From a virus (Duplodnaviria > Heunggongvirae > Uroviricota > Caudoviricetes), in the IMG/VR virus record IMGVR_UViG_2568526312_000010: a stretch of 64,000 nt of DNA. One strand, given 5' to 3'. This document shows positions 5,919-62,501 of this stretch, piece by piece. Position 1 is the stretch's first letter, and each line of letters starts with the position of its first letter. Made by a program: the position numbers and the translations under genes. The notes below the pieces were generated by a model. It worked only from the letters and a program-made list of their open reading frames with translations. It had not been told where the DNA came from and did not search any database.

Positions 5919-6143
5919 ATGTCATCAAAGAACAGAACCCGCAGAACAACAACCCGCAACATCCGATTTCCAAACCAGATGATTGAACAAATTAACATCG
6001 CTCTTGATCTGAAAGGTTCAGGAAATTTTTCAGCGTGGGTTATTGAAGCCTGCAGAAGAAGATTAATTAATGAAAAATATTCTCAATTTGTACCCAACAA
6101 AGACAAACACGACCAGAGAACCTGTTCAGACAGGTTTACTTAA
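5919..6143 (+). CDS. ribbon-helix-helix-like small DNA-binding protein
   Basis: 74 aa; RNIRFPNQMIEQINIAL...NFSAWVIEACRRRL resembles RHH (Arc/MetJ/CopG) fold; opposite strand to the late genes; diverged homologue at 55560. Confidence 0.45.
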   Translation: MSSKNRTRRTTTRNIRFPNQMIEQINIALDLKGSGNFSAWVIEACRRRLINEKYSQFVPNKDKHDQRTCSDRFT

Positions 6144-6224
6144 ACGACTTATATATGACACAAAAAGCGACCACTAAAGTCGCTTTTTCTTATGGTAACA
6201 GGCAATAACGCTCTCAGATATTTT

Positions 6225-6539
6225 TTAGCATTTTTTTGACCGCGCGTTTCCGGACGTATTCTGTTCTCCTGTCCCTTTATATCGTCGGAATACCCGCCGC
6301 TCTTCAAATCCCATTCCCAACTCAGAATGTAGTCTGTTGACCGCTTGTTTTATTTCGGTCAGGTTCACCGGTGAAACCGGAGTCCGGCGCGCCTTACGCA
6401 AACACTCTGCTCGTTTCTGTGCCGCCACTTTTCTTTTCTGGTCATCACTTAGCTGTACCATCACTTTTGCCCATCGTTCAGCTGCTCTCCGGTACAGTCC
6501 TTTTTTCTCCAGACATTCTGCCAGGTGATCATGTAGCAT
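6225..6539 (-). CDS. PerC-family (Pch-like) transcriptional regulator homologue
   Basis: 104 aa with LEKKGLYRRAAERW and FRRYK motifs recalled from PerC/Pch proteins; sits in the Rz-to-cos moron slot; AT-rich region follows. Confidence 0.5.
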   Translation of the reverse strand: MLHDHLAECLEKKGLYRRAAERWAKVMVQLSDDQKRKVAAQKRAECLRKARRTPVSPVNLTEIKQAVNRLHSELGMGFEERRVFRRYKGTGEQNTSGNARSKKC

Positions 6540-7002
6540 AAGTAACCTCCGTTTATCTACAGACTGCCATCCTGAATTTACCGTCCTTAATAAGACAACA
6601 ATAAAAAACTAATTATATAAAAACAATAAAAATAATATACAAAAAAACTAAACAACAAAGAAAAGCAAATCATATCTGGCATTTTAATTGAAAGAGCAAT
6701 TACCGAACAAAAGACGCTGACTATATACTCAAAACCAAACAACAATTCTGCCAATCAGGTATCATGGCAACACACGGAATTACCATGTTTTTGCCTTCTC
6801 TGCCCATACAATACGGGCATATACTTCATACTCTATTGTAATATTTCTATCCATGTGCCCCACTCCATTTACCTGTAAATAATATTCAAAATATTTATCA
6901 CAGAAATCGTTTTTGGCCATGAACTGAGCACACTATAAAGTCCGGAACTGACTCTTTGTTAAATTACCTTAACGTTACCAGTAACACCTTCGTAACAAAA
7001 CA

Positions 7003-8992: not shown

Positions 8993-9042
8993 GGATATTT
9001 ATCAGGGTTTATCGATTTCAAATCCCTGGATATGTTAAGTCT

Positions 9043-9390
9043 TCAGGCCAGCGGTGGAGTCTTCAGAGAACCCGTAATTATTCCCGGTAGTTTTCCTCTG
9101 TAGGTTATCAACACATCCTGCGCCTCTAAAATTACGGGACGCTTTTCCGGTAACGGACCATCCCCTTCACATAACCCGGCAGCAACATCCATGAAAAACT
9201 GCTTCGCCTGCTTTTTCGCCTCAGCTTCGTAAAACTCCAGCGTGGCACCTTCAGTACGGTCAAGACTAATCGCCACATCTGGCAACAACAGTGACGGATA
9301 CCCACCAATTTCCGGTGCCACAGTAACAGTAATCTTATCCGGGTAATTATTTATCCCTTTAACAACCAGTTCGTATTTTTTCTTCATCAC
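9043..9390 (-). CDS. hypothetical protein within lysis cassette
   Basis: 115-aa ORF between holin and endolysin, identical in both prophages. Confidence 0.45.
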   Translation of the reverse strand: MMKKKYELVVKGINNYPDKITVTVAPEIGGYPSLLLPDVAISLDRTEGATLEFYEAEAKKQAKQFFMDVAAGLCEGDGPLPEKRPVILEAQDVLITYRGKLPGIITGSLKTPPLA

Positions 9391-9391
9391 T

Positions 9392-9598
9392 TTACTCTCC
9401 CCGCGCCGCCTTACGCCGGTCTTCTTTAATCTTGAAATACAGGTTCGTCAGATATGTCAGCAGCCCAAACAGCAGACTCCCCAGCACGCCTATCGCCACC
9501 CACTGGGACGGAGAGACTTTGTCCAGCAGCTGCAGTAACCAGTATCCCGTCCCCACCGCTGACGTGGTGTATGACACACCCGTTGTGATTTTTTCCAT
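9392..9598 (-). CDS. S: class II holin / pinholin (phage 21 S-like)
   Basis: 68 aa, two TM segments and RKAARGE tail, close to recalled S21 sequence. Confidence 0.85.
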
Positions 9599-9854
9599 CT
9601 GATGTATGTCTCCGTCACCGCCGACAGAAAATGAAAGTAAAGAAAAACAAAAAAGCCGCCAGTGTCACCCACTGACGGCCAACGCCGGGAGCCGTGATTA
9701 TGGCATTCAGGCTCTGCTAAAAATGCCAGATAACATTCCGGCCACCCCCTGATTCAGGTTATAAATGACACAATATCTTGACAACATCCGTCACTGTCTG
9801 TCAGAAAATGTACTGCCATATAGAAGCAACATGTGAAGTACATCTATCCTTTTG

Positions 9855-9897
9855 AGCCAGCACCTCTCCACCGAAAGTCAGTGCTGGCTGTTTTTTT
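9855..9897 (+). terminator. rho-independent terminator on plus strand (antisense to late operon)
   Basis: AGCCAGCAC...GTGCTGGCT stem followed by T7 on the plus strand only. Confidence 0.5.
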
Positions 9898-10005
9898 CCT
9901 TAATAAAGCATCTGTAACTGAAACAATCCGCATATTGATAATATATTGACAGGCATCATTGCTGTCTGTGAAAAATAAGTCTCTACAAACATATAAGGCC
10001 TTTTA

Positions 10006-10045
10006 GCCAGCGTCTTCTTTCAGGTCAGTCGCTGGCTCTTTTTTT
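10006..10045 (+). terminator. second plus-strand rho-independent terminator abutting the nanS-p stop
   Basis: AGCCAGCG...CGCTGGCT stem followed by T7 on the plus strand. Confidence 0.5.
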
Positions 10046-10046
10046 A

Positions 10047-11897
10047 TTATGCTGCCGGTGCATTTATCTCCAGCACCAGACTTTCTATCTCAACGCCATA
10101 CGCTGCATTTTTTGTAACATCCGTCAGCGTCAGCGCATTCAGTCCCAGTGTCAGACTGTCTTTTATAACCTGGAATGCCGGGCCAGCCACTCCATTCAGT
10201 TTCGGAGTAACCGTGGCACTGCCGGCGGTGAACACCAGCTCCAGCGTCTGCCAGTCGTTACCGTAATCGCCGAACTCCCCCAGCTTCGTGTTTCCGGCTT
10301 TCCTGTGATGCATCAGATTCACTCTGCCGTCAGTGGTCTGAGTAAAGTACGACATCAGGAACGGATTACCGGTACCCGTCATCGCCACACCATCAGGAAC
10401 GGGAGCATCCGTATACAGATAAATCCCCAGCCCGAACTGATTGTTGGTCAGCGCGCCTGACAGGCGGAACTTACAGGTCAGTCTGCCGCCCTGTGTCAGC
10501 AGGGTAATTGCGTCATCCACCGGATGCGTCAGGGACCAGGTTTTATTGCTCTGCCTGGTGATCTTAAATACACCATCTGACAACTGAATTCCGCCATCCT
10601 TAATGCTCCAGCCCTGCGCAGCAGCCTCTCCGGCTGCCGGCAGCAGGGAGATTGTGCGAACGGACGTATCTGCAGACGGACCCGATGGCGTGTTGCCGCC
10701 GGGCGAGGGTTTGATTTCCGGTGCCTTACCACTGATGAAGGCTGAGGTGCGCCCGGCTGCGTTCAGAATAGCGGTTGCCAGACGCTCCGGAATAATGCTC
10801 CTGCGCGCCCATGAACTGAAATGTGTCGGGCGGTTTGATGATACCTGGTTTCCATTCGTTCTCGATGCCGCACCGTAATATCCTGATGCCGGAATATCCG
10901 GATCTTCTGCCGGCGCGTTAGTGGCGGTATTGACGCCGTTACCGTCTGTCATGAAGGGCACAAAATAAACGCCCTCACTCTCCCTGTTTTTATACCCGCC
11001 GTACACGGTGTCGTACTGGGTAGCGTATGTATTTTTCCAGTAATACGTCGTGTCACCACAAATCCACGGCACATCTGCAGCACTGCCACCATGGCACTGC
11101 GCGTTAAACACGGAGAGGTCAGCACGAAACTGTGCCAGCATGGCTGTAAACAGCGCAGGTTGCTGTGCGTGGGTGGCGGCGCTCATGTCAAACTCTCCCT
11201 GCATCCAGCAGACGGCCAGCAGAACGTTTTTGGGATTTTTCTGCAATGCCGCTTTTGTGCGGGAAATCAGATCCTGATATAACGGCTTGCCCACCCCCCA
11301 GCGTGCCGAATCCTGGCTGGCCCCCGTGGACTCGCTGAATGTCCCCTCCGCGCCCTGGGTAAATGCCGAACCACCACGACAGCATGGTACCAGCAGGATC
11401 CCCGCGTTATTCGGGATATACGGGAGCAGTTTTTTGGCAATATGTAACCCCTGGCCGACACAGCCGTACTGCCCTTTGCTCAGGTCTGCCTTCGGATGAT
11501 TCAGCGTACTCATATCCTGCACATCATGCAGGCAGTGGTCGGCCGGAATAATATCGTTATATCTGCAGGCAGCCCCACCCGGCGTCACTGTACTGCGGCG
11601 CGCCAGCTGTTTAATGCGCGGATCCGGAGCATCGTATGAATCCGGCAGCGGAAGCCCTTCACCGTAAGCCATGGCATTGGACTGCCCGGCCAGTACGATG
11701 ACGTAGTACCAATCCGGCTCAGTTGCACCACTGACCACCACATCACCTTCTGCTGTAATCGCCTGCATCAGGGTATAAGGGGTTATGGCCACCGGACTAC
11801 CAAACGGCTGCCAGCCCTCTTTCAGTTTGTGTGTCAGCTTTTCCGCAAGGTCTGACGGCGACGCCGCCCTGACAACATCATAATGTTTAATCGACAT
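10047..11897 (-). CDS. nanS: prophage sialate O-acetylesterase NanS-p (DUF1737 N-terminal domain plus SGNH-type esterase)
   Basis: 616 aa; GQSNAMAYG esterase motif; position upstream of the holin as in Stx-type phages. Confidence 0.8.
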   Translation of the reverse strand: MSIKHYDVVRAASPSDLAEKLTHKLKEGWQPFGSPVAITPYTLMQAITAEGDVVVSGATEPDWYYVIVLAGQSNAMAYGEGLPLPDSYDAPDPRIKQLARRSTVTPGGAACRYNDIIPADHCLHDVQDMSTLNHPKADLSKGQYGCVGQGLHIAKKLLPYIPNNAGILLVPCCRGGSAFTQGAEGTFSESTGASQDSARWGVGKPLYQDLISRTKAALQKNPKNVLLAVCWMQGEFDMSAATHAQQPALFTAMLAQFRADLSVFNAQCHGGSAADVPWICGDTTYYWKNTYATQYDTVYGGYKNRESEGVYFVPFMTDGNGVNTATNAPAEDPDIPASGYYGAASRTNGNQVSSNRPTHFSSWARRSIIPERLATAILNAAGRTSAFISGKAPEIKPSPGGNTPSGPSADTSVRTISLLPAAGEAAAQGWSIKDGGIQLSDGVFKITRQSNKTWSLTHPVDDAITLLTQGGRLTCKFRLSGALTNNQFGLGIYLYTDAPVPDGVAMTGTGNPFLMSYFTQTTDGRVNLMHHRKAGNTKLGEFGDYGNDWQTLELVFTAGSATVTPKLNGVAGPAFQVIKDSLTLGLNALTLTDVTKNAAYGVEIESLVLEINAPAA

Positions 11898-12374
11898 CGA
11901 ATTTCTCCCGTGTACAGGAACAGAGTTAAAAAGCCGGAACCGGAATCAAATCACAGGATGACCATCTGCCAGTGGCTGGTCGTAAAAAAAAGCCGCGCCA
12001 TGCGCAGCCGGAAATAAAGGGATAACGATGATAGTTTGAGAAAAACAGAAACAACACTTTTGTGGCAAAGCATGGTGCCGGGTGCCTCCCGGTGAATTCA
12101 GTATCAGCACCTGAATCCGCGATTATCCCATATACCTGGTTGCTGATCGCCCCTCCGCACAGGGGGATTCACCATGCAGAAGTGTTTTTAATAAACAGCA
12201 AACAAAAAAATCAAGCATTATGCAGGCTGTTTCTTTTTATCACCGGCCACAGCAATACCACAATGCCGCAGACCAGCACCCCATCCGCCAGCACCGACAT
12301 GATTCTGCTGGTGAAATCCACCATCACCACCAGAAACAGCAGGAGTGCAGCCACAGCCAGGCGCAGTTTTACCG

Positions 12375-12806
12375 TCACAGGTGATTCTCCAGACGAAGAC
12401 CCAGAACACCGGCAATCTCTTCCAGCACCTTGCGCTCTTCCGGCTCAATTTCGCCGTCTGCCTCCGCAATGGCCACCGCCACATCCAGCACATCTTCCGC
12501 TTCACGCGTATCGTGTTTCACATCCTCAATCTCACGTAACGCCGCACGACGACCAGTTTTAAAGTTCGTATCCAGCTGACCGATAATGGTTGCGCTAATC
12601 GCATTAATTTCTGACGTAAACGCGGACAGCGCAGGCTGATTACGCAGTACCTGTTCGATCTTCGCTTTCTCGGATGCCTCACATTCACCATCTGCACAGG
12701 CCACCAGGTATGCGGCGTTAATCACCACCTGTGCCAGATCGCGTTTTTCAAACTTTTTAATTTCCGTTGCCGCTCTGCGGGTTTTCTTTTTGAAGATTCC
12801 AAACAT
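12375..12806 (-). CDS. TerB-like (tellurite-resistance-like) protein
   Basis: ACADGECEASEKAKIEQVL...AIAEADGEIEPEERKVLEEIAGVLG pattern; start taken at ATG 12806 with AAGGA RBS. Confidence 0.65.
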   Translation of the reverse strand: MFGIFKKKTRRAATEIKKFEKRDLAQVVINAAYLVACADGECEASEKAKIEQVLRNQPALSAFTSEINAISATIIGQLDTNFKTGRRAALREIEDVKHDTREAEDVLDVAVAIAEADGEIEPEERKVLEEIAGVLGLRLENHL

Positions 12807-12936
12807 CGTGACGTTCCTTTGGGTGGGTGAGCCAACGCCCGGGAGCGATCTGCCCACAGAGAAAGTCACACTGACCACTCCGTAAGCTCACCCCCGAAAG
12901 GCTCTGTGGTTGGTATGCGCCGGGCGTGGCGCAGAT

Positions 12937-12962
12937 ACAAAAAAGGCCCGCCGAAGCGAGCC
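12937..12962 (-). terminator. rho-independent terminator downstream of tRNA cluster
   Basis: minus strand GGCTCGC-TTCG-GCGGGCC hairpin followed by T6. Confidence 0.55.
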
Positions 12963-12975
12963 TGGAAAATAAGTG

Positions 12976-13052
12976 TGGCGCGTTGTAGTGGAGTCGAACC
13001 ACTGACCGATTGCTTAGAAGGCAATTGCTCTGTCCGGCTGAGCTAACAACGC
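12976..13052 (-). tRNA. tRNA-Arg (anticodon TCT)
   Basis: hand-folded cloverleaf with perfect 7-bp acceptor stem, CTTCTAA anticodon loop, TTCGACT T-loop, CCA end. Confidence 0.8.
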
Positions 13053-13065
13053 AGAATACCGATAA

Positions 13066-13145
13066 TGGACCGCCATCGGGGACCCGGCCCCGCACCAACA
13101 ACCCTGTTATGGTGTCGTCTGCTCTTCCTGATAAGCTAATGGCGG
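13066..13145 (-). pseudogene. degenerate tRNA-like remnant (position of tRNA-Arg(TCG) in prophage 2)
   Basis: acceptor-stem halves conserved but interior replaced; no canonical T-loop or anticodon stem. Confidence 0.4.
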
Positions 13146-13152
13146 TTTGTGA

Positions 13153-13228
13153 TGGTGGCCCTTGCTGGATTTGAACCAGCGACCTGGCGATTATGAGTCG
13201 CTCGCTCTCACCACTGAGCTAAAGGGCC
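13153..13228 (-). tRNA. tRNA-Ile2-like (anticodon CAT)
   Basis: GGCCCTTTAGCTCAGTGGTGAGAGCG...CTCATAATCGC...GGTTCAAATCC...GGGCCACCA, resembles recalled ileX-type tRNA. Confidence 0.8.
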
Positions 13229-13256
13229 GAGCCAAAAAATAATAATCAGATGAAAA

Positions 13257-13970
13257 TCAATAATCAAGCCCTTGCCTGGATACATATCTGTCTGGCGGGA
13301 AGCCATAATAGCGGTGAAATACAGAAATAAAGTAGGACCGGCTTGAATAACCACATTTTTCTGCTACAGCCTGTCCATATCCATACCGGGAACATAACAT
13401 ATTTACAGCAACACGCATCCGCTCTTCCAGCAACAAGCGACTGAACATGCCCCCTTCATTTTTCAGTTTTGTCTTTAACAAACTCTCACTCATATGCAAC
13501 TGTAGAGCAATCGCACCAAGCGTCCAGCTTGCTGATATATCTGTCTGAATTATCGCCCTGACTTTGGCACTTATGCTGGATAAACATCCACTTAAAAACA
13601 ATGACATCCGTTCATCTGTTTCAAACAGAGACAGGCAGGCCATCATAAGAAACATATCCGTGACCTCTCCGGAAAATCCCTGGCTGGTAATTAAAGCCGC
13701 AGCCAACGCAGGATTGTTGGGTTCCAGCAACAGGTAAAGCGGAATGTCAGTCAGACGAGTCCTCGTCAGCTTATGCTGACTTTCCAGATATTGACTTACG
13801 ACGGATTCGCTTATATCGACAATTTTAACTTTGCCATAATGCATAAGGAAAAGCTCCCTGATGCATTTGGTGGCCAGAACGACTGAGCCTGGCTTAAGTG
13901 ACAACGTATCCTTTTCAAGAAAAATATTAATTGGGGAGCAAACCATGATAACTGAACAGACAACAGCCAT
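13257..13970 (-). CDS. AraC-family transcriptional regulator (AppY/PerA-like architecture)
   Basis: 237 aa; C-terminal AraC-type HTH (AVAEKCGYSSRSYFISVFHRYYGFPP); AT-rich gene; present only in prophage 1. Confidence 0.75.
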   Translation of the reverse strand: MAVVCSVIMVCSPINIFLEKDTLSLKPGSVVLATKCIRELFLMHYGKVKIVDISESVVSQYLESQHKLTRTRLTDIPLYLLLEPNNPALAAALITSQGFSGEVTDMFLMMACLSLFETDERMSLFLSGCLSSISAKVRAIIQTDISASWTLGAIALQLHMSESLLKTKLKNEGGMFSRLLLEERMRVAVNMLCSRYGYGQAVAEKCGYSSRSYFISVFHRYYGFPPDRYVSRQGLDY

Positions 13971-14105
13971 TATAATTTTACTTTCATTAGCAATTGGTTA
14001 GCTCAATTATAGCCCCAAAAGGTAAATTATCATCAACACATAAGCAAAGGACTGACAGGTGCCGCCCCCCCCACCAGCCGCCCATTTACCACAAATAAAA
14101 AGCCT

Positions 14106-14426
14106 TCAGGACTGAATGCGTCTGTAACAACCGCACTGATAGTCTGCCAGACCCGCCATAACCAGCTGGGTCAGTATTAACTGGCAGCGTTCGCGTGAAA
14201 GGTAAGTATTCTGCGCAATCTCCCCGACTGTCGCCGGTTCGGTAACGCTTAATTCATTAAACACCACTCTGGCGGTTTCTGTCATATCCTGCTGTTTTAG
14301 CATGTCTTTTTCCCTTTTCCGGTTAACGTGACATACCAATAACTCTTGTCGAAAAAGCCAGCAAGTTGAAAGACCGGTATTAGCAACCACCAGCGCGTTT
14401 AACGCCCCGTGCCGTTTTTCAGTCAT
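14106..14426 (-). CDS. hypothetical small protein (true start may be internal, about 14288)
   Basis: ORF directly after the tR'-like terminator; first ATG lacks an RBS, internal ATG has AGGA. Confidence 0.3.
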   Translation of the reverse strand: MTEKRHGALNALVVANTGLSTCWLFRQELLVCHVNRKREKDMLKQQDMTETARVVFNELSVTEPATVGEIAQNTYLSRERCQLILTQLVMAGLADYQCGCYRRIQS

Positions 14427-14452
14427 AAAAAAACCCGCAAAAAGCGGGCTCT
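14427..14452 (-). terminator. tR'-like intrinsic terminator downstream of Q
   Basis: minus strand CCCGC-TTTTT-GCGGG hairpin followed by T7, about 75 bp downstream of the Q stop. Confidence 0.6.
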
Positions 14453-14527
14453 TTCAAATGTCCATGTCTGCTATTCGCCTCGCGGTACAGCTTTGCGAAG
14501 CTTACCGGAATTGAAGCAGTTTTTACG

Positions 14528-15094
14528 TCAAAAAGCAATAACTTTTTTCTCTATACCAAAAGCCATAACCATTGGTTTGTACAAAATAAATTCTGCCACC
14601 TTTAGCCAATGCTCAATGCGTCTTTCACAGGTTCTTAAACTCCATTCCGGATGTGCATCATTCAGCAATTCAGCCATTTTGCGCTTAGTCATCCCCCGCC
14701 CCACATAACGCTGACTCAGAACATTGAGCAGCCCGGGATAACCTGCCAGTACTTCACCAATAACCCTATCGATTATTAACGCCTCTGAATCGGTACAATG
14801 TGCCAGCCAGCTTTTTTGATTGCCGTTGATCATATCCCGCAAAAAAGCCTCAAGTTCAGGTTTGTCCAGACCCGCTTTTTTCATCCTCCGGAGCGCCTCG
14901 TTAATTGCCGTTTTTGTCAGCTTTTTAGAGGTCAGTAATTGGTTGAACATATTTCCCGTCTTACCGTCGCCAATATACGACCAACGCCCCCACATACGCA
15001 GTTTCCCCTGGATCCAGACACTTTCCAGCGTTTTCAGGCGTAAATGCTCACCGCTTTTGCCTGTAATTTCCGGGTATATCATATTTATGCTCAC
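14528..15094 (-). CDS. late antiterminator Q-like protein (allele 1)
   Basis: 188 aa in the canonical slot between rusA and terminator/tRNAs; family assignment from position and vague similarity. Confidence 0.5.
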   Translation of the reverse strand: MSINMIYPEITGKSGEHLRLKTLESVWIQGKLRMWGRWSYIGDGKTGNMFNQLLTSKKLTKTAINEALRRMKKAGLDKPELEAFLRDMINGNQKSWLAHCTDSEALIIDRVIGEVLAGYPGLLNVLSQRYVGRGMTKRKMAELLNDAHPEWSLRTCERRIEHWLKVAEFILYKPMVMAFGIEKKVIAF

Positions 15095-22623: not shown

Positions 22624-23262
22624 ATGAACAAGCAAACAATATCTGAACGCATAACCCAACGTATGCATGCGCTAAACTTGAAAGGCAAAGACCTTGTCAA
22701 TGCCACTGGCGCATCAAAAGGCTCCGTAAGTCAATGGATGAACGGTGGAGGAGCGCCGTCCTCGCGTTACATAAGTTCACTGGCAAAGATATTGAAAGTA
22801 AACGAAAATTGGCTTCTTAATGGAGGAGAGTTAAATACAGGTGATTCGCTTGATCTATCTTTACCGCCGATAAAAACGGTTCCGCTACTATCACTTCAGC
22901 AGGCAGCAAGCTGGAGTGATTATATGAAAAATTCCTCAATAACCTCTTGTGTGCAGCTTGTCGGAGAAATCCCGGCCAATACCTTTGCTGTTGTTCTAGA
23001 GAGTGACAGTATGTCGACATCTGGTGGTGGAGTTTCCATCCCAAATGGTTCAACAGTTTTTGTTGATCCCGATCGAATCGTACAACCAGGAAATATTGTC
23101 CTTGCCTTACCCAAAGGGACCACAACGCCTGTCATTCGCAAACTGGAGATAGAAGGGCCGGATATTCTTTTAGTCCCCACGAATCCTCGCTACCCTTCAA
23201 TTATGCTGGATGATCTATCTTGCATATTGGGAGTATGCTTTAAAATTCAACAAGATATTTAA
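22624..23262 (+). CDS. CI-like repressor (HTH_XRE plus LexA-like S24 peptidase domain)
   Basis: N-terminal HTH (ISERITQRMHALNLKGKDLVNATGASKGSVSQWMNG); C-terminal DSM...IRKL serine/lysine dyad. Confidence 0.85.
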   Translation: MNKQTISERITQRMHALNLKGKDLVNATGASKGSVSQWMNGGGAPSSRYISSLAKILKVNENWLLNGGELNTGDSLDLSLPPIKTVPLLSLQQAASWSDYMKNSSITSCVQLVGEIPANTFAVVLESDSMSTSGGGVSIPNGSTVFVDPDRIVQPGNIVLALPKGTTTPVIRKLEIEGPDILLVPTNPRYPSIMLDDLSCILGVCFKIQQDI

Positions 23263-58144: not shown

Positions 58145-58194
58145 GGATATTTATCAGGGTTTATCGATTTCAAATCCCTGGATATGTTAAGTCT

Positions 58195-58542
58195 TCAGGC
58201 CAGCGGTGGAGTCTTCAGAGAACCCGTAATTATTCCCGGTAGTTTTCCTCTGTAGGTTATCAACACATCCTGCGCCTCTAAAATTACGGGACGCTTTTCC
58301 GGTAACGGACCATCCCCTTCACATAACCCGGCAGCAACATCCATGAAAAACTGCTTCGCCTGCTTTTTCGCCTCAGCTTCGTAAAACTCCAGCGTGGCAC
58401 CTTCAGTACGGTCAAGACTAATCGCCACATCTGGCAACAACAGTGACGGATACCCACCAATTTCCGGTGCCACAGTAACAGTAATCTTATCCGGGTAATT
58501 ATTTATCCCTTTAACAACCAGTTCGTATTTTTTCTTCATCAC
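58195..58542 (-). CDS. hypothetical protein within lysis cassette (identical copy)
   Basis: identical translation to 9043..9390. Confidence 0.45.
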   Translation of the reverse strand: MMKKKYELVVKGINNYPDKITVTVAPEIGGYPSLLLPDVAISLDRTEGATLEFYEAEAKKQAKQFFMDVAAGLCEGDGPLPEKRPVILEAQDVLITYRGKLPGIITGSLKTPPLA

Positions 58543-58543
58543 T

Positions 58544-58750
58544 TTACTCTCCCCGCGCCGCCTTACGCCGGTCTTCTTTAATCTTGAAATACAGGTTCGT
58601 CAGATATGTCAGCAGCCCAAACAGCAGACTCCCCAGCACGCCTATCGCCACCCACTGGGACGGAGAGACTTTGTCCAGCAGCTGCAGTAACCAGTATCCC
58701 GTCCCCACCGCTGACGTGGTGTATGACACACCCGTTGTGATTTTTTCCAT
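58544..58750 (-). CDS. S: pinholin S21-like (identical copy)
   Basis: identical translation to 9392..9598. Confidence 0.85.
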
Positions 58751-59006
58751 CTGATGTATGTCTCCGTCACCGCCGACAGAAAATGAAAGTAAAGAAAAAC
58801 AAAAAAGCCGCCAGTGTCACCCACTGACGGCCAACGCCGGGAGCCGTGATTATGGCATTCAGGCTCTGCTAAAAATGCCAGATAACATTCCGGCCACCCC
58901 CTGATTCAGGTTATAAATGACACAATATCTTGACAACATCCGTCACTGTCTGTCAGAAAATGTACTGCCATATAGAAGCAACATGTGAAGTACATCTATC
59001 CTTTTG

Positions 59007-59049
59007 AGCCAGCACCTCTCCACCGAAAGTCAGTGCTGGCTGTTTTTTT
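59007..59049 (+). terminator. plus-strand terminator (copy of 9855..9897)
   Basis: same hairpin plus T7 at offset +49152. Confidence 0.5.
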
Positions 59050-59157
59050 CCTTAATAAAGCATCTGTAACTGAAACAATCCGCATATTGATAATATATTG
59101 ACAGGCATCATTGCTGTCTGTGAAAAATAAGTCTCTACAAACATATAAGGCCTTTTA

Positions 59158-59197
59158 GCCAGCGTCTTCTTTCAGGTCAGTCGCTGGCTCTTTTTTT
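59158..59197 (+). terminator. plus-strand terminator (copy of 10006..10045)
   Basis: same hairpin plus T7. Confidence 0.5.
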
Positions 59198-59198
59198 A

Positions 59199-61049
59199 TT
59201 ATGCTGCCGGTGCATTTATCTCCAGCACCAGACTTTCTATCTCAACGCCATACGCTGCATTTTTTGTAACATCCGTCAGCGTCAGCGCATTCAGTCCCAG
59301 TGTCAGACTGTCTTTTATAACCTGGAATGCCGGGCCAGCCACTCCATTCAGTTTCGGAGTAACCGTGGCACTGCCGGCGGTGAACACCAGCTCCAGCGTC
59401 TGCCAGTCGTTACCGTAATCGCCGAACTCCCCCAGCTTCGTGTTTCCGGCTTTCCTGTGATGCATCAGATTCACTCTGCCGTCAGTGGTCTGAGTAAAGT
59501 ACGACATCAGGAACGGATTACCGGTACCCGTCATCGCCACACCATCAGGAACGGGAGCATCCGTATACAGATAAATCCCCAGCCCGAACTGATTGTTGGT
59601 CAGCGCGCCTGACAGGCGGAACTTACAGGTCAGTCTGCCGCCCTGTGTCAGCAGGGTAATTGCGTCATCCACCGGATGCGTCAGGGACCAGGTTTTATTG
59701 CTCTGCCTGGTGATCTTAAATACACCATCTGACAACTGAATTCCGCCATCCTTAATGCTCCAGCCCTGCGCAGCAGCCTCTCCGGCTGCCGGCAGCAGGG
59801 AGATTGTGCGAACGGACGTATCTGCAGACGGACCCGATGGCGTGTTGCCGCCGGGCGAGGGTTTGATTTCCGGTGCCTTACCACTGATGAAGGCTGAGGT
59901 GCGCCCGGCTGCGTTCAGAATAGCGGTTGCCAGACGCTCCGGAATAATGCTCCTGCGCGCCCATGAACTGAAATGTGTCGGGCGGTTTGATGATACCTGG
60001 TTTCCATTCGTTCTCGATGCCGCACCGTAATATCCTGATGCCGGAATATCCGGATCTTCTGCCGGCGCGTTAGTGGCGGTATTGACGCCGTTACCGTCTG
60101 TCATGAAGGGCACAAAATAAACGCCCTCACTCTCCCTGTTTTTATACCCGCCGTACACGGTGTCGTACTGGGTAGCGTATGTATTTTTCCAGTAATACGT
60201 CGTGTCACCACAAATCCACGGCACATCTGCAGCACTGCCACCATGGCACTGCGCGTTAAACACGGAGAGGTCAGCACGAAACTGTGCCAGCATGGCTGTA
60301 AACAGCGCAGGTTGCTGTGCGTGGGTGGCGGCGCTCATGTCAAACTCTCCCTGCATCCAGCAGACGGCCAGCAGAACGTTTTTGGGATTTTTCTGCAATG
60401 CCGCTTTTGTGCGGGAAATCAGATCCTGATATAACGGCTTGCCCACCCCCCAGCGTGCCGAATCCTGGCTGGCCCCCGTGGACTCGCTGAATGTCCCCTC
60501 CGCGCCCTGGGTAAATGCCGAACCACCACGACAGCATGGTACCAGCAGGATCCCCGCGTTATTCGGGATATACGGGAGCAGTTTTTTGGCAATATGTAAC
60601 CCCTGGCCGACACAGCCGTACTGCCCTTTGCTCAGGTCTGCCTTCGGATGATTCAGCGTACTCATATCCTGCACATCATGCAGGCAGTGGTCGGCCGGAA
60701 TAATATCGTTATATCTGCAGGCAGCCCCACCCGGCGTCACTGTACTGCGGCGCGCCAGCTGTTTAATGCGCGGATCCGGAGCATCGTATGAATCCGGCAG
60801 CGGAAGCCCTTCACCGTAAGCCATGGCATTGGACTGCCCGGCCAGTACGATGACGTAGTACCAATCCGGCTCAGTTGCACCACTGACCACCACATCACCT
60901 TCTGCTGTAATCGCCTGCATCAGGGTATAAGGGGTTATGGCCACCGGACTACCAAACGGCTGCCAGCCCTCTTTCAGTTTGTGTGTCAGCTTTTCCGCAA
61001 GGTCTGACGGCGACGCCGCCCTGACAACATCATAATGTTTAATCGACAT
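59199..61049 (-). CDS. nanS: NanS-p sialate O-acetylesterase (identical copy)
   Basis: 616 aa identical to 10047..11897. Confidence 0.8.
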   Translation of the reverse strand: MSIKHYDVVRAASPSDLAEKLTHKLKEGWQPFGSPVAITPYTLMQAITAEGDVVVSGATEPDWYYVIVLAGQSNAMAYGEGLPLPDSYDAPDPRIKQLARRSTVTPGGAACRYNDIIPADHCLHDVQDMSTLNHPKADLSKGQYGCVGQGLHIAKKLLPYIPNNAGILLVPCCRGGSAFTQGAEGTFSESTGASQDSARWGVGKPLYQDLISRTKAALQKNPKNVLLAVCWMQGEFDMSAATHAQQPALFTAMLAQFRADLSVFNAQCHGGSAADVPWICGDTTYYWKNTYATQYDTVYGGYKNRESEGVYFVPFMTDGNGVNTATNAPAEDPDIPASGYYGAASRTNGNQVSSNRPTHFSSWARRSIIPERLATAILNAAGRTSAFISGKAPEIKPSPGGNTPSGPSADTSVRTISLLPAAGEAAAQGWSIKDGGIQLSDGVFKITRQSNKTWSLTHPVDDAITLLTQGGRLTCKFRLSGALTNNQFGLGIYLYTDAPVPDGVAMTGTGNPFLMSYFTQTTDGRVNLMHHRKAGNTKLGEFGDYGNDWQTLELVFTAGSATVTPKLNGVAGPAFQVIKDSLTLGLNALTLTDVTKNAAYGVEIESLVLEINAPAA

Positions 61050-61527
61050 CGAATTTCTCCCGTGTACAGGAACAGAGTTAAAAAGCCGGAACCGGAATCA
61101 AATCACAGGATGACCATCTGCCAGTGGCTGGTCGTAAAAAAAAGGCCGCGCCATGCGCAGCCGGAAATAAAGGGATAACGATGATAGTTTGAGAAAAACA
61201 GAAATAACACTTTTGTGGCAAAGCATGGTGCCGGGTGCCTCCCGGTGAATTCAGTACCAGCACCTGAATCCGCGATTATCCCATATACCTTCTTGCTGAT
61301 CGCCCCTCCGCACAGGGGGATTCACCATGCAGAAGTGTTTTTAATAAACAGCAAACAAAAAAATCAAGCATTATGCAGGCTGTTTCTTTTTATCACCGGC
61401 CACAGCAATACCACAATGCCGCAGACCAGCACCCCATCCGCCAGCACCGACATGATTCTGCTGGTGAAATCCACCATCACCACCAGAAACAGCAGGAGTG
61501 CAGCCACAGTCAGGCGCAGTTTTACCG

Positions 61528-61989
61528 TCACAGGTGATTCTCCAGACGAAGACCCAGAACACCGGCAATCTCTTCCAGCACCTTGCGCTCTTCCGGCTCA
61601 ATTTCGCCGTCTGCCTCCGCAATGGCCACCGCCACATCCAGCACATCTTCCGCTTCACGCGTATCGTGTTTCACATCCTCGATCTCACGTAACGCCGCAC
61701 GACGACCAGTTTTAAAGTTCGTATCCAGCTGACCGATAATGGTTGCGCTAATCGCATTAATTTCTGACGTAAACGCGGACAGCGCAGGCTGATTACGCAG
61801 TACCTGTTCGATCTTCGCTTTCTCGGATGCCTCACATTCACCATCTGCACAGGCCACCAGGTATGCGGCGTTAATCACCACCTGTGCCAGATCGCGTTTT
61901 TCAAACTTTTTAATTTCCGTTGCCGCTCTGCGGGCTTTTTTTACCAAAAATACCAAACATCGTGACGTTCCTTTGGGTGGGTGAGCCAA
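61528..61989 (-). CDS. TerB-like protein, 5' end frameshifted relative to prophage 1 copy (possible pseudogene or alternative start)
   Basis: conserved ATG at 61960 reads MFGIFGKKSPQSGNGN-stop because of a 1-nt insertion in an A-run; longest ORF uses an upstream ATG. Confidence 0.5.
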   Translation of the reverse strand: MAHPPKGTSRCLVFLVKKARRAATEIKKFEKRDLAQVVINAAYLVACADGECEASEKAKIEQVLRNQPALSAFTSEINAISATIIGQLDTNFKTGRRAALREIEDVKHDTREAEDVLDVAVAIAEADGEIEPEERKVLEEIAGVLGLRLENHL

Positions 61990-62131
61990 CGCCCGGGAGC
62001 GATCTGCCCACAGAGAAAGTCACACTGACCACTCCGTAAGCTCCCCCCCCCGAAAGGCTCTGTGGTTGGTATGTGCCGGGCGTGGCGCAGATACAAAAAA
62101 GGCCCGCAAAAGCGAGCCGGGAAAATAAGTG

Positions 62132-62208
62132 TGGCGCGTTGTACTGGAGTCGAACCAGTGACCGATTGCTTAGAAGGCAATTGCTCTGTCCTGCTGAGCT
62201 AAAAACGC
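62132..62208 (-). tRNA. tRNA-Arg (anticodon TCT), variant allele
   Basis: same cloverleaf as copy 1 with compensatory T-stem change and one acceptor-stem T-C mismatch. Confidence 0.7.
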
Positions 62209-62221
62209 AGAATACCGATAA

Positions 62222-62298
62222 TGGACCGCCATCGGAGACTCGAACCCCGCGAAACCAGCTTCGAAGGCTGGCGTTCTATCCCGATGAGCTAATGGCGG
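62222..62298 (-). tRNA. tRNA-Arg (anticodon TCG)
   Basis: acceptor CCGCCAT/ATGGCGG, anticodon loop CTTCGAA, T-loop TTCGAGT, CCA end. Confidence 0.7.
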
Positions 62299-62305
62299 TA
62301 TGTGA

Positions 62306-62381
62306 TGGTGGCCCTTGCTGGATTTGAACCAGCGGCCTGGCGATTATGAGTCGCTCGCTCTCACCACTGAGCTAAAGGGCC
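62306..62381 (-). tRNA. tRNA-Ile2-like (anticodon CAT)
   Basis: near-identical to the copy at 13153..13228. Confidence 0.8.
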
Positions 62382-62501
62382 GGGCGCAGGATAATAACGT
62401 TACGAAATCAATGTTGCAAGCATTCAAGAATCACCTGGTTAAAAATTACCCTTACTTCCTCCACCAGCGCATTCACCATGTCTATCCGAGATAAGTGGCA
62501 C

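Follow-up and report, generated by a model that had tools for sequence, protein, structure and literature searches.

The AraC-family gene behind the Q-type antiterminator of an O157:H7-type prophage is very probably psrB (Z2104), with a putative promoter of its own

PsrA and PsrB of Escherichia coli O157:H7 are AraC-like regulators known as prophage-encoded secretion regulators (PMC10877973, PMC8565820). Both increase GadE and YhiF, and thereby repress LEE (locus of enterocyte effacement) type III secretion. PsrB binds to the promoter regions of hdeA and gadE, and it makes the bacteria more resistant to acid and better able to pass through the mouse stomach. Deletion of psrA raises secretion, whereas deletion of psrB alone has little effect on it; nevertheless, psrB complements a psrA mutant (all PMC10877973, PMC8565820). 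A 2026 paper likewise treats PsrA/GadE as a cascade that operates in uninduced cultures and following attachment to host cells. The psr family was described on prophages, where its members accompany effector loci and regulators of the Pch (PerC-like) type (Tree et al. 2011, via reviews). PsrB is part of the established takeover of the host glutamate decarboxylase (GAD) acid-resistance circuit by O157:H7 prophages and of the tuning of type III secretion. Here, we analyzed a 64,000-nucleotide stretch of Caudoviricetes DNA (IMG/VR record IMGVR_UViG_2568526312_000010; "the window"), which carries two prophages in tandem. The initial annotation of the window had noted an AraC-family gene and a small open reading frame (ORF) between a tR'-like terminator and the tRNA genes of prophage 1. 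It had also pointed out that AraC-like prophage regulators are known to rewire the virulence and acid-resistance regulons of enterohemorrhagic E. coli. We found that the gene is very probably a named example of this class, psrB.

The product of the AraC-family gene was 100% identical to WP_000301797.1, which is encoded at 1,906,697–1,907,410 of strain ATCC 43894 (EDL933 lineage). The window and this chromosome were 99.8% identical over 34 kb; with a difference of approximately 0.2%, the window derives from a different O157:H7 strain. The position of the identical protein falls inside the interval of O-island (OI) 57 (1,849,324–1,929,825; PMC8565820), where psrB has been placed as z2104 (PMC8565820, PMC10877973). 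Independent confirmation came from published primers (PMC4763077). The Z2104 pair matched the window exactly at 13553–13572 and 13691–13710, with the 158-bp amplicon as published, and the primers for Z2100, Z2101, Z2102 (Q), Z2104, and Z2108 (esterase) all matched in the expected order. Due to the protein identity, the OI-57 position, and the primer matches, the gene was assigned as psrB; no difference was found from PsrB of EDL933 (Z2104, OI-57/CP-933O). The 1.5-kb stretch containing the regulator was 100% identical in many E. coli O157:H7 chromosomes. The comparison with characterized prophage regulators that had been proposed in the initial annotation thus ended in a full match: the gene was correctly re-discovered, it was already known, and nothing new emerged on PsrB itself. 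We estimate a probability of roughly 0.9 that the gene is psrB (Z2104), situated in the Sp11-like half of CP-933O, and moron-like, that is, expressible from the repressed prophage.

The tandem arrangement of the window matches CP-933O, which corresponds to Sp11 plus Sp12 of strain Sakai. From the lambda-type P loader and lambda-like head genes of prophage 1, and from the NleG7-like gene ending prophage 2, we infer that the former is Sp11-like and the latter Sp12-like. The surroundings of the gene also resemble those described for the psr family: it lies in a lambdoid late region, the same prophage carries a PerC-family gene at 6225–6539, and an NleG effector gene is present at 31653–32321. Read from high to low coordinates, the minus strand contains a RusA gene, Q, the terminator T1, the small ORF (termed ORF65 below), psrB, two tRNA genes, and the terminator T3. 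Downstream of T3, TerB and DUF3927 genes and next a sialate-esterase-like gene precede the lysis genes. The intact regulator ORF, T1, and the two tRNAs were therefore all found where the initial annotation had them. Its description of the regulator as AT-rich was also borne out, to a moderate degree (43.8% GC, as compared with 52.3% for the window). The coordinates are collected in Table 1.

Table 1. Features of the psrB locus in prophage 1 (positions in the window).
Feature	Position	Strand	Description
Q gene (DUF1133 type; Z2102)	14528–15094 (RefSeq start 15082)	minus	full length
Leader after Q	14457–14538	minus	candidate late promoter/qut region and short leader RNA
T1 (tR'-equivalent)	14427–14456	minus	GCCCGC-UUUUU-GCGGGU + U7; folding free energy (dG) -18.2 kcal/mol, z -4.2 vs. 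shuffles
ORF65 (presumably Z2103; RefSeq WP_000917763.1)	14106–14303	minus	65 amino acids, probably winged-helix, function unknown
Predicted sigma-70 promoter of psrB	14006–14033	minus	ATGATA-16-TATAAT, 10/12, 36 nt upstream of the start codon
psrB (Z2104)	13257–13970	minus	237-amino-acid YdeO-like AraC/XylS regulator; Pfam, protein identity, primer matches
tRNA, CAT anticodon (ileZ-type)	13153–13228	minus	Met by ARAGORN, Ile by RefSeq
tRNA-Arg (TCT)	12976–13052	minus	
T3 terminator after the tRNAs	12944–12963	minus	found by scan; dG -14.9 kcal/mol, z -3.2

Truncation of the helix-turn-helix (HTH) domain had been named as a finding that would refute the initial observation. The C-terminal AraC-type double HTH of PsrB proved to be complete. 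Pfam HTH_18 matched residues 155–230 (model positions 2–78 of 80; E = 2.4e-9; 37.8 bits, with a cut-off of 33.6), and HTH_AraC matched two stretches (E = 2.9e-13; 50 bits, with a cut-off of 26.6). The protein belongs with PHROG 1450 (E = 3.8e-99). Its closest relative among those compared was PsrA (91% amino acid and 94% nucleotide identity), followed by the AraC regulator of OI-8 that we take to be PatE (38% by alignment, 37% by tblastn), YdeO (30%), and AppY, the regulator of the DLP12 prophage (29%). The conserved residues aligned with YdeO, AppY, and the PatE candidate up to the C-terminus. The NCBIfam model of YdeO (NF007407) covered residues 1–229 of PsrB (model positions 1–230 of 253; E = 2e-30), but the score of 106.1 bits did not reach the equivalog cut-off of 348. 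Judged by these alignments, PsrB is a full-length distant paralogue of YdeO, not an orthologue. Among the E. coli K-12 proteins, YdeO and AppY are the closest described counterparts, and GadX is a relative in its C-terminal part. YdeO is the EvgA-dependent chromosomal activator of gadE, and the full-length alignment with it makes the sequence of PsrB consistent with the published gadE activation. PatE (Z0321, OI-8/CP-933H) is likewise a prophage-borne AraC-like activator of gadE/hdeA acid resistance, and its candidate, the AraC regulator in the CP-933H region, named by position, was collinear with PsrB over the full length. The two differ in their location: the PatE candidate adjoins tail-fiber and invertase genes outside a Q-to-lysis leader, whereas PsrB lies inside such a leader.

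The Q gene of prophage 1 matched Pfam DUF1133 (E = 3.7e-105), with a weak match to Phage_antitermQ, and PHROG 753, "anti-termination protein Q-like" (E = 5.8e-81). The Z2102 primers matched it exactly at 14790–14809 and 14892–14912. Between the Q stop codon and the T1 hairpin, the leader of approximately 75 nt was near-invariant in phages vB_EcoS-666R9 and 683R6, where the DUF1133-type Q is only 74–80% identical; conservation of the leader exceeded that of the Q 3' end. What follows the hairpin in these phages is unrelated cargo, either a hypothetical gene or tRNA-Thr and tRNA-Gly, ahead of the holin and endolysin genes. Near-invariance together with this Q type is what a late promoter/qut/tR' unit would display, and it lends comparative support to the designation of T1 as tR'-like in the initial annotation. 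The leader is predicted to contain a late promoter. The consensus scan yielded no site at its threshold between Q and T1, and inspection by eye yielded just a weak TTGCTT-17-TTCAAT; to our knowledge, no promoter has been described for this DUF1133-type Q family. The leader also contains two small hairpins, AGCTT-CGCA-AAGCT and CGC-GAG-GCG.

T1 itself was missed by the automatic scan because its stem can extend into the U tract. In seven aligned ORF65 loci, a CCCGC...GCGGG-T6-7 hairpin stood exactly where the homology starts, in four upstream contexts (a DUF1133-type Q, a CPBP protease gene, a TfpB-like gene, and reverse-strand genes). Since the hairpin marks the start of homology whatever lies upstream, T1 is also a module boundary, the upstream edge of the mobile ORF65 module. 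A second terminator after ORF65, proposed by eye from the consensus of the relatives, was rejected for the window (z = +1.16).

Comparison of the two prophages clarified how this cassette came to differ between them. They were 98.8% identical over 9000–13232 (58152–62385 in prophage 2), where homology resumes 4 nt upstream of the CAT tRNA gene, and were homologous again from 15082 (63275) onward. The block in between (13233–15081, 1.85 kb) comprises the DUF1133-type Q, T1, ORF65, and psrB. Its counterpart in prophage 2 measures 0.89 kb and holds a lambda-Q-type antiterminator (PF06323, E = 7e-92), which nearly abuts the tRNAs. A sequence search of prophage 2 detected no homologues of psrB and ORF65. 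The absence of the two genes stated in the initial annotation was therefore correct, but its picture of an insertion was not: what separates the two prophages is a mosaic exchange that took in the entire Q cassette, rather than an insertion past a terminator common to both.

The predicted promoter of psrB (Table 1) was conserved in all psr loci examined, and the alignment showed its loss where a methylase gene replaces psr. With its lower GC content, its own promoter-like site, and the bracketing terminators T1 and T3, psrB would be a classic moron, and this architecture would allow its expression while the prophage is repressed. Read-through of psrB by late transcription would be an unavoidable by-product as well, because all genes from Q to lysis lie on one strand and a Q-modified polymerase would transcribe them. 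Autonomous expression is probably the main mode, in agreement with the Psr phenotypes published for uninduced cells, namely the psrA deletion phenotype and the psrA/gadE regulation in uninduced cultures (PMC10877973, PMC8565820, 2026 paper). Several points weigh against this assignment. The promoter is a consensus match, and the scan returned 3 sites, as compared with 3.1 expected from shuffled sequence. All functional statements on PsrB rest on reviews and later papers. Furthermore, the small effect of the psrB deletion may mean that the gene is natively expressed weakly or only under certain conditions, in which case a different trigger, for example late transcription, could play a part. Late transcription is the core of the expression model in the initial annotation, where psrB is expressed mainly by Q-dependent antitermination and its regulon is switched on at prophage induction, like stx. 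The positional part of this proposal is sound: psrB is co-oriented behind Q and T1 and upstream of the lysis genes, and the order Q – leader – T1 – ORF65 – psrB – tRNAs – T3 – TerB/DUF3927 – esterase – lysis runs entirely along the minus strand. Q is full length, T1 is a strong terminator, and the co-variation of the leader with this Q type in other phages is that of a PR'/qut/tR' unit. A CI-like ORF of prophage 1 (22624–23262, plus strand; 212 amino acids) contains a Peptidase_S24 domain and an HTH_3 match just under the Pfam cut-off, and in strain PA20, Sp11 was scored excision-positive, with approximately half of its genes changed after sulfamethoxazole–trimethoprim treatment (PMC5931665). 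In Sakai, however, the repressor and integrase of Sp11/Sp12 are disrupted, and neither excision nor replication occurred with mitomycin C (PMC2669165). Holin and lysozyme would be co-expressed late; if a cytoplasmic regulator were produced at that stage alone, the cell in which it acts would already be dying. The conserved promoter-like site of psrB, the phenotypes of uninduced cultures, and the lack of a scan-level promoter between Q and T1 point in the same direction. Coupling to induction is not needed for the known biology, and we regard Q-dependent antitermination as an unlikely main mode.

The defective state of the prophage also raises the alternative that psrB is a decaying, non-functional remnant. 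The integrase and the exonuclease VIII of its host prophage are truncated, and the weak secretion phenotype of the psrB deletion could be read in the same way. However, the ORF is intact and its HTH complete, the identical protein occurs on approximately 1000 contigs, and 588 complete-genome records carry psrB at ≥99% nucleotide identity. Pairwise ratios of non-synonymous to synonymous substitution rates (dN/dS) of 0.22–0.43 among psr alleles suggest purifying selection, and expressed PsrB has published activity in acid resistance and DNA binding. We therefore consider a remnant highly improbable, and retain psrB as a functional gene, probably expressed mainly on its own. Late transcription of defective prophages might also supply PsrB to the GadE/LEE network. 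As to the CI-like repressor ORF, RefSeq annotates only a 112-amino-acid LexA-family protein at this place in ATCC 43894, as compared with the 212 residues in the window.

The psrA locus (named z1789 by the reviews and, in Sakai, ecs1087 of Sp4) provides the closest comparison for the module. Downstream of its Q gene, it has the same ORF65–psr–ileZ/arg tRNA arrangement as the psrB locus, and the two regulators share the published GadE/YhiF target pathway. The psrA locus differs in its Q type (PF06530), in a CPBP-protease gene that separates Q from the module, and in having three intact tRNAs followed by the region of the EvrS small RNA (sRNA). Reviews place psrA as z1789 in OI-50/CP-933N (PMC10877973, PMC8565820). 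In contrast, the potC-integrated prophage (CP-933N) of ATCC 43894 and of the resequenced EDL933 (CP008957) contained no PsrB homologue. A psrA-type gene was found instead at approximately 1.17 Mb in O157:H7 genomes (6002–6715 in the compared stretch L015, 6001–6714 in L006). It matched the published z1789 and EvrS primers and agreed with the designation "ecs1087, Sp4" (PMC13502914). The old AE005174 assembly or its labeling probably misplaces psrA. A by-product of the analysis is thus that the psrA locus tag and island given in recent reviews do not match the resequenced EDL933 genomes. The EvrS primers (PMC11774850) mapped to 7119–7239 of L006, between the psrA tRNAs, which lie just upstream, and the esterase gene. 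They had no exact copy in the window, where one primer matched with two mismatches at 61292–61309 in prophage 2; the psrB locus has TerB and DUF3927 where the psrA locus has EvrS. Among the 40 best-ranked records with an Antiterm-type Q, ORF65, and psr, none was labeled O157:H7.

The initial annotation had also equated the position of the regulator with the slot that holds the toxin genes in Stx phages. This part did not hold. In phage Stx2a_1447, the order is Q – two reverse genes – ORF65 – methylase – ileZ argN argO – stx2A stx2B, and in phiSTEC1575-Stx2k and related contigs, it is Q – ... – ORF65 – psr (91% identical) – three tRNAs – stx2A stx2B. Thus, stx lies downstream of the ileZ–argN–argO tRNAs and psr upstream of them. 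Both occupy the late strand, with Q/tR' on one side and the lysis genes on the other, but psrB differs from stx in having its own promoter-like site. Since the Stx2k phages carry the two on opposite sides of the tRNAs, the psr and stx slots are adjacent and can coexist. According to these gene orders, the slot holds either psr or, in Stx2a phages, a DNA methylase. In both prophages of the window, the post-tRNA (stx) position is taken by TerB-family and DUF3927 genes (12211–12878 and 61528–61989). The analysis thereby yielded two further by-products: evidence for adjacent, non-identical psr and stx slots, and a general architecture of the cargo region, Q – leader – T1 – ORF65 – (psr/methylase) – tRNAs – (stx/TerB).

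The small ORF upstream of psrB was confirmed, with a change in its extent. The initial annotation, with a span to 14452, implied 106 amino acids, and this reading (to 14426) was rejected: the extension is allele-specific and not conserved. In related loci, the frame upstream of ORF65 is closed after 2, 4, 6, or 25 codons, and RefSeq calls the conserved 65 residues. ORF65 matched PHROG 331, of unknown function (E = 3.9e-37), and gave weak Pfam matches to TrmB, MarR, and winged-HTH models, all below their cut-offs (TrmB, 18.3 vs. 25.6 bits). Its AlphaFold model was a three-helix bundle (predicted local distance difference test score of 67). The top Foldseek matches were mostly winged-helix proteins (MarR, ArsR/CzrA-type, Z-alpha, SelB), none of them significant (all E ≥ 0.29). 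The dN/dS values were 0.13–0.20, as for a gene under purifying selection. We found ORF65 in 55 phage records, including Stx2a, 2c, 2d, and 2k phages, phiP27, SfV, mEp460, and phages of Klebsiella, Citrobacter, and Hafnia, and in prophages across the Enterobacteriaceae. From this distribution, ORF65 is a separate, widespread lambdoid gene that marks the start of the cargo region, not part of an AraC insertion. The stretch of approximately 120 nt from T1 to ORF65 (14300–14426, minus strand) was as conserved as coding sequence, despite the different upstream genes. It contained no convincing sigma-70 site and had no excess RNA stability (z = -0.45); presumably, it holds the ORF65 promoter or another signal.

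Two functional roles were weighed for ORF65. It stands directly upstream of psr at the psrB and psrA loci, in Stx2k phages, and in other contexts, with four different Q types, and so ORF65 and PsrB might form a functional pair (with ORF65 as a co-regulator or anti-activator) gained together as a two-gene insertion. In Stx2a phages and phiP27, however, the gene that comes after ORF65 is a DNA methylase gene and not psr, and the spread of ORF65 over the phage records listed above, SfV, mEp460, and the Klebsiella and Citrobacter phages included, is not that of a partner of psr. The homology between psr and methylase loci stops between ORF65 and the psr promoter-like site. Moreover, a 1-nt deletion shifts the frame of ORF65 at the psrA locus of O157 (5668–5864 of L015), although PsrA is functional; at the psrB locus, ORF65 is intact. 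A functional pair is therefore very improbable. In the other role, ORF65 would be a regulator, acting on read-through or on the cargo of the late leader: on psr, on the methylase or the tRNAs, or even on stx. ORF65 is 63–65 residues long, in many lambdoid phages it opens the cargo region immediately after a tR'-type terminator, and it lies just upstream of the tRNA–stx segment in Stx2a, 2c, 2d, 2k, and phiP27 phages. We put this forward as a prediction and consider it very unlikely. If true, the output of PsrB would be tied to the state of phage late transcription. The separate, widespread lambdoid gene described above remains our preferred description of ORF65.

Minor differences were observed in the tRNA segment and beyond. 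Between its two tRNA genes (13053–13152), all that prophage 1 retains of the middle tRNA (argN, anticodon TCG) is a remnant; prophage 2 has this tRNA in intact form at 62222–62298. Approximately 45 internal nucleotides of the remnant differ while both ends are kept, and ARAGORN called no tRNA there. In one stem of tRNA-Arg(TCT), a G-C pair in one prophage is C-G in the other, a compensatory change. In the post-tRNA region, the CP-933N copy of TerB/DUF3927 (ATCC 43894, EDL933 CP008957) has an internal stop. A promoter-like sequence, TTGATT-17-TATTAT (9/12), lies at 13239–13267 (minus strand) inside the 3' end of psrB, approximately 10 nt before the first tRNA; this putative site could drive the tRNAs independently.

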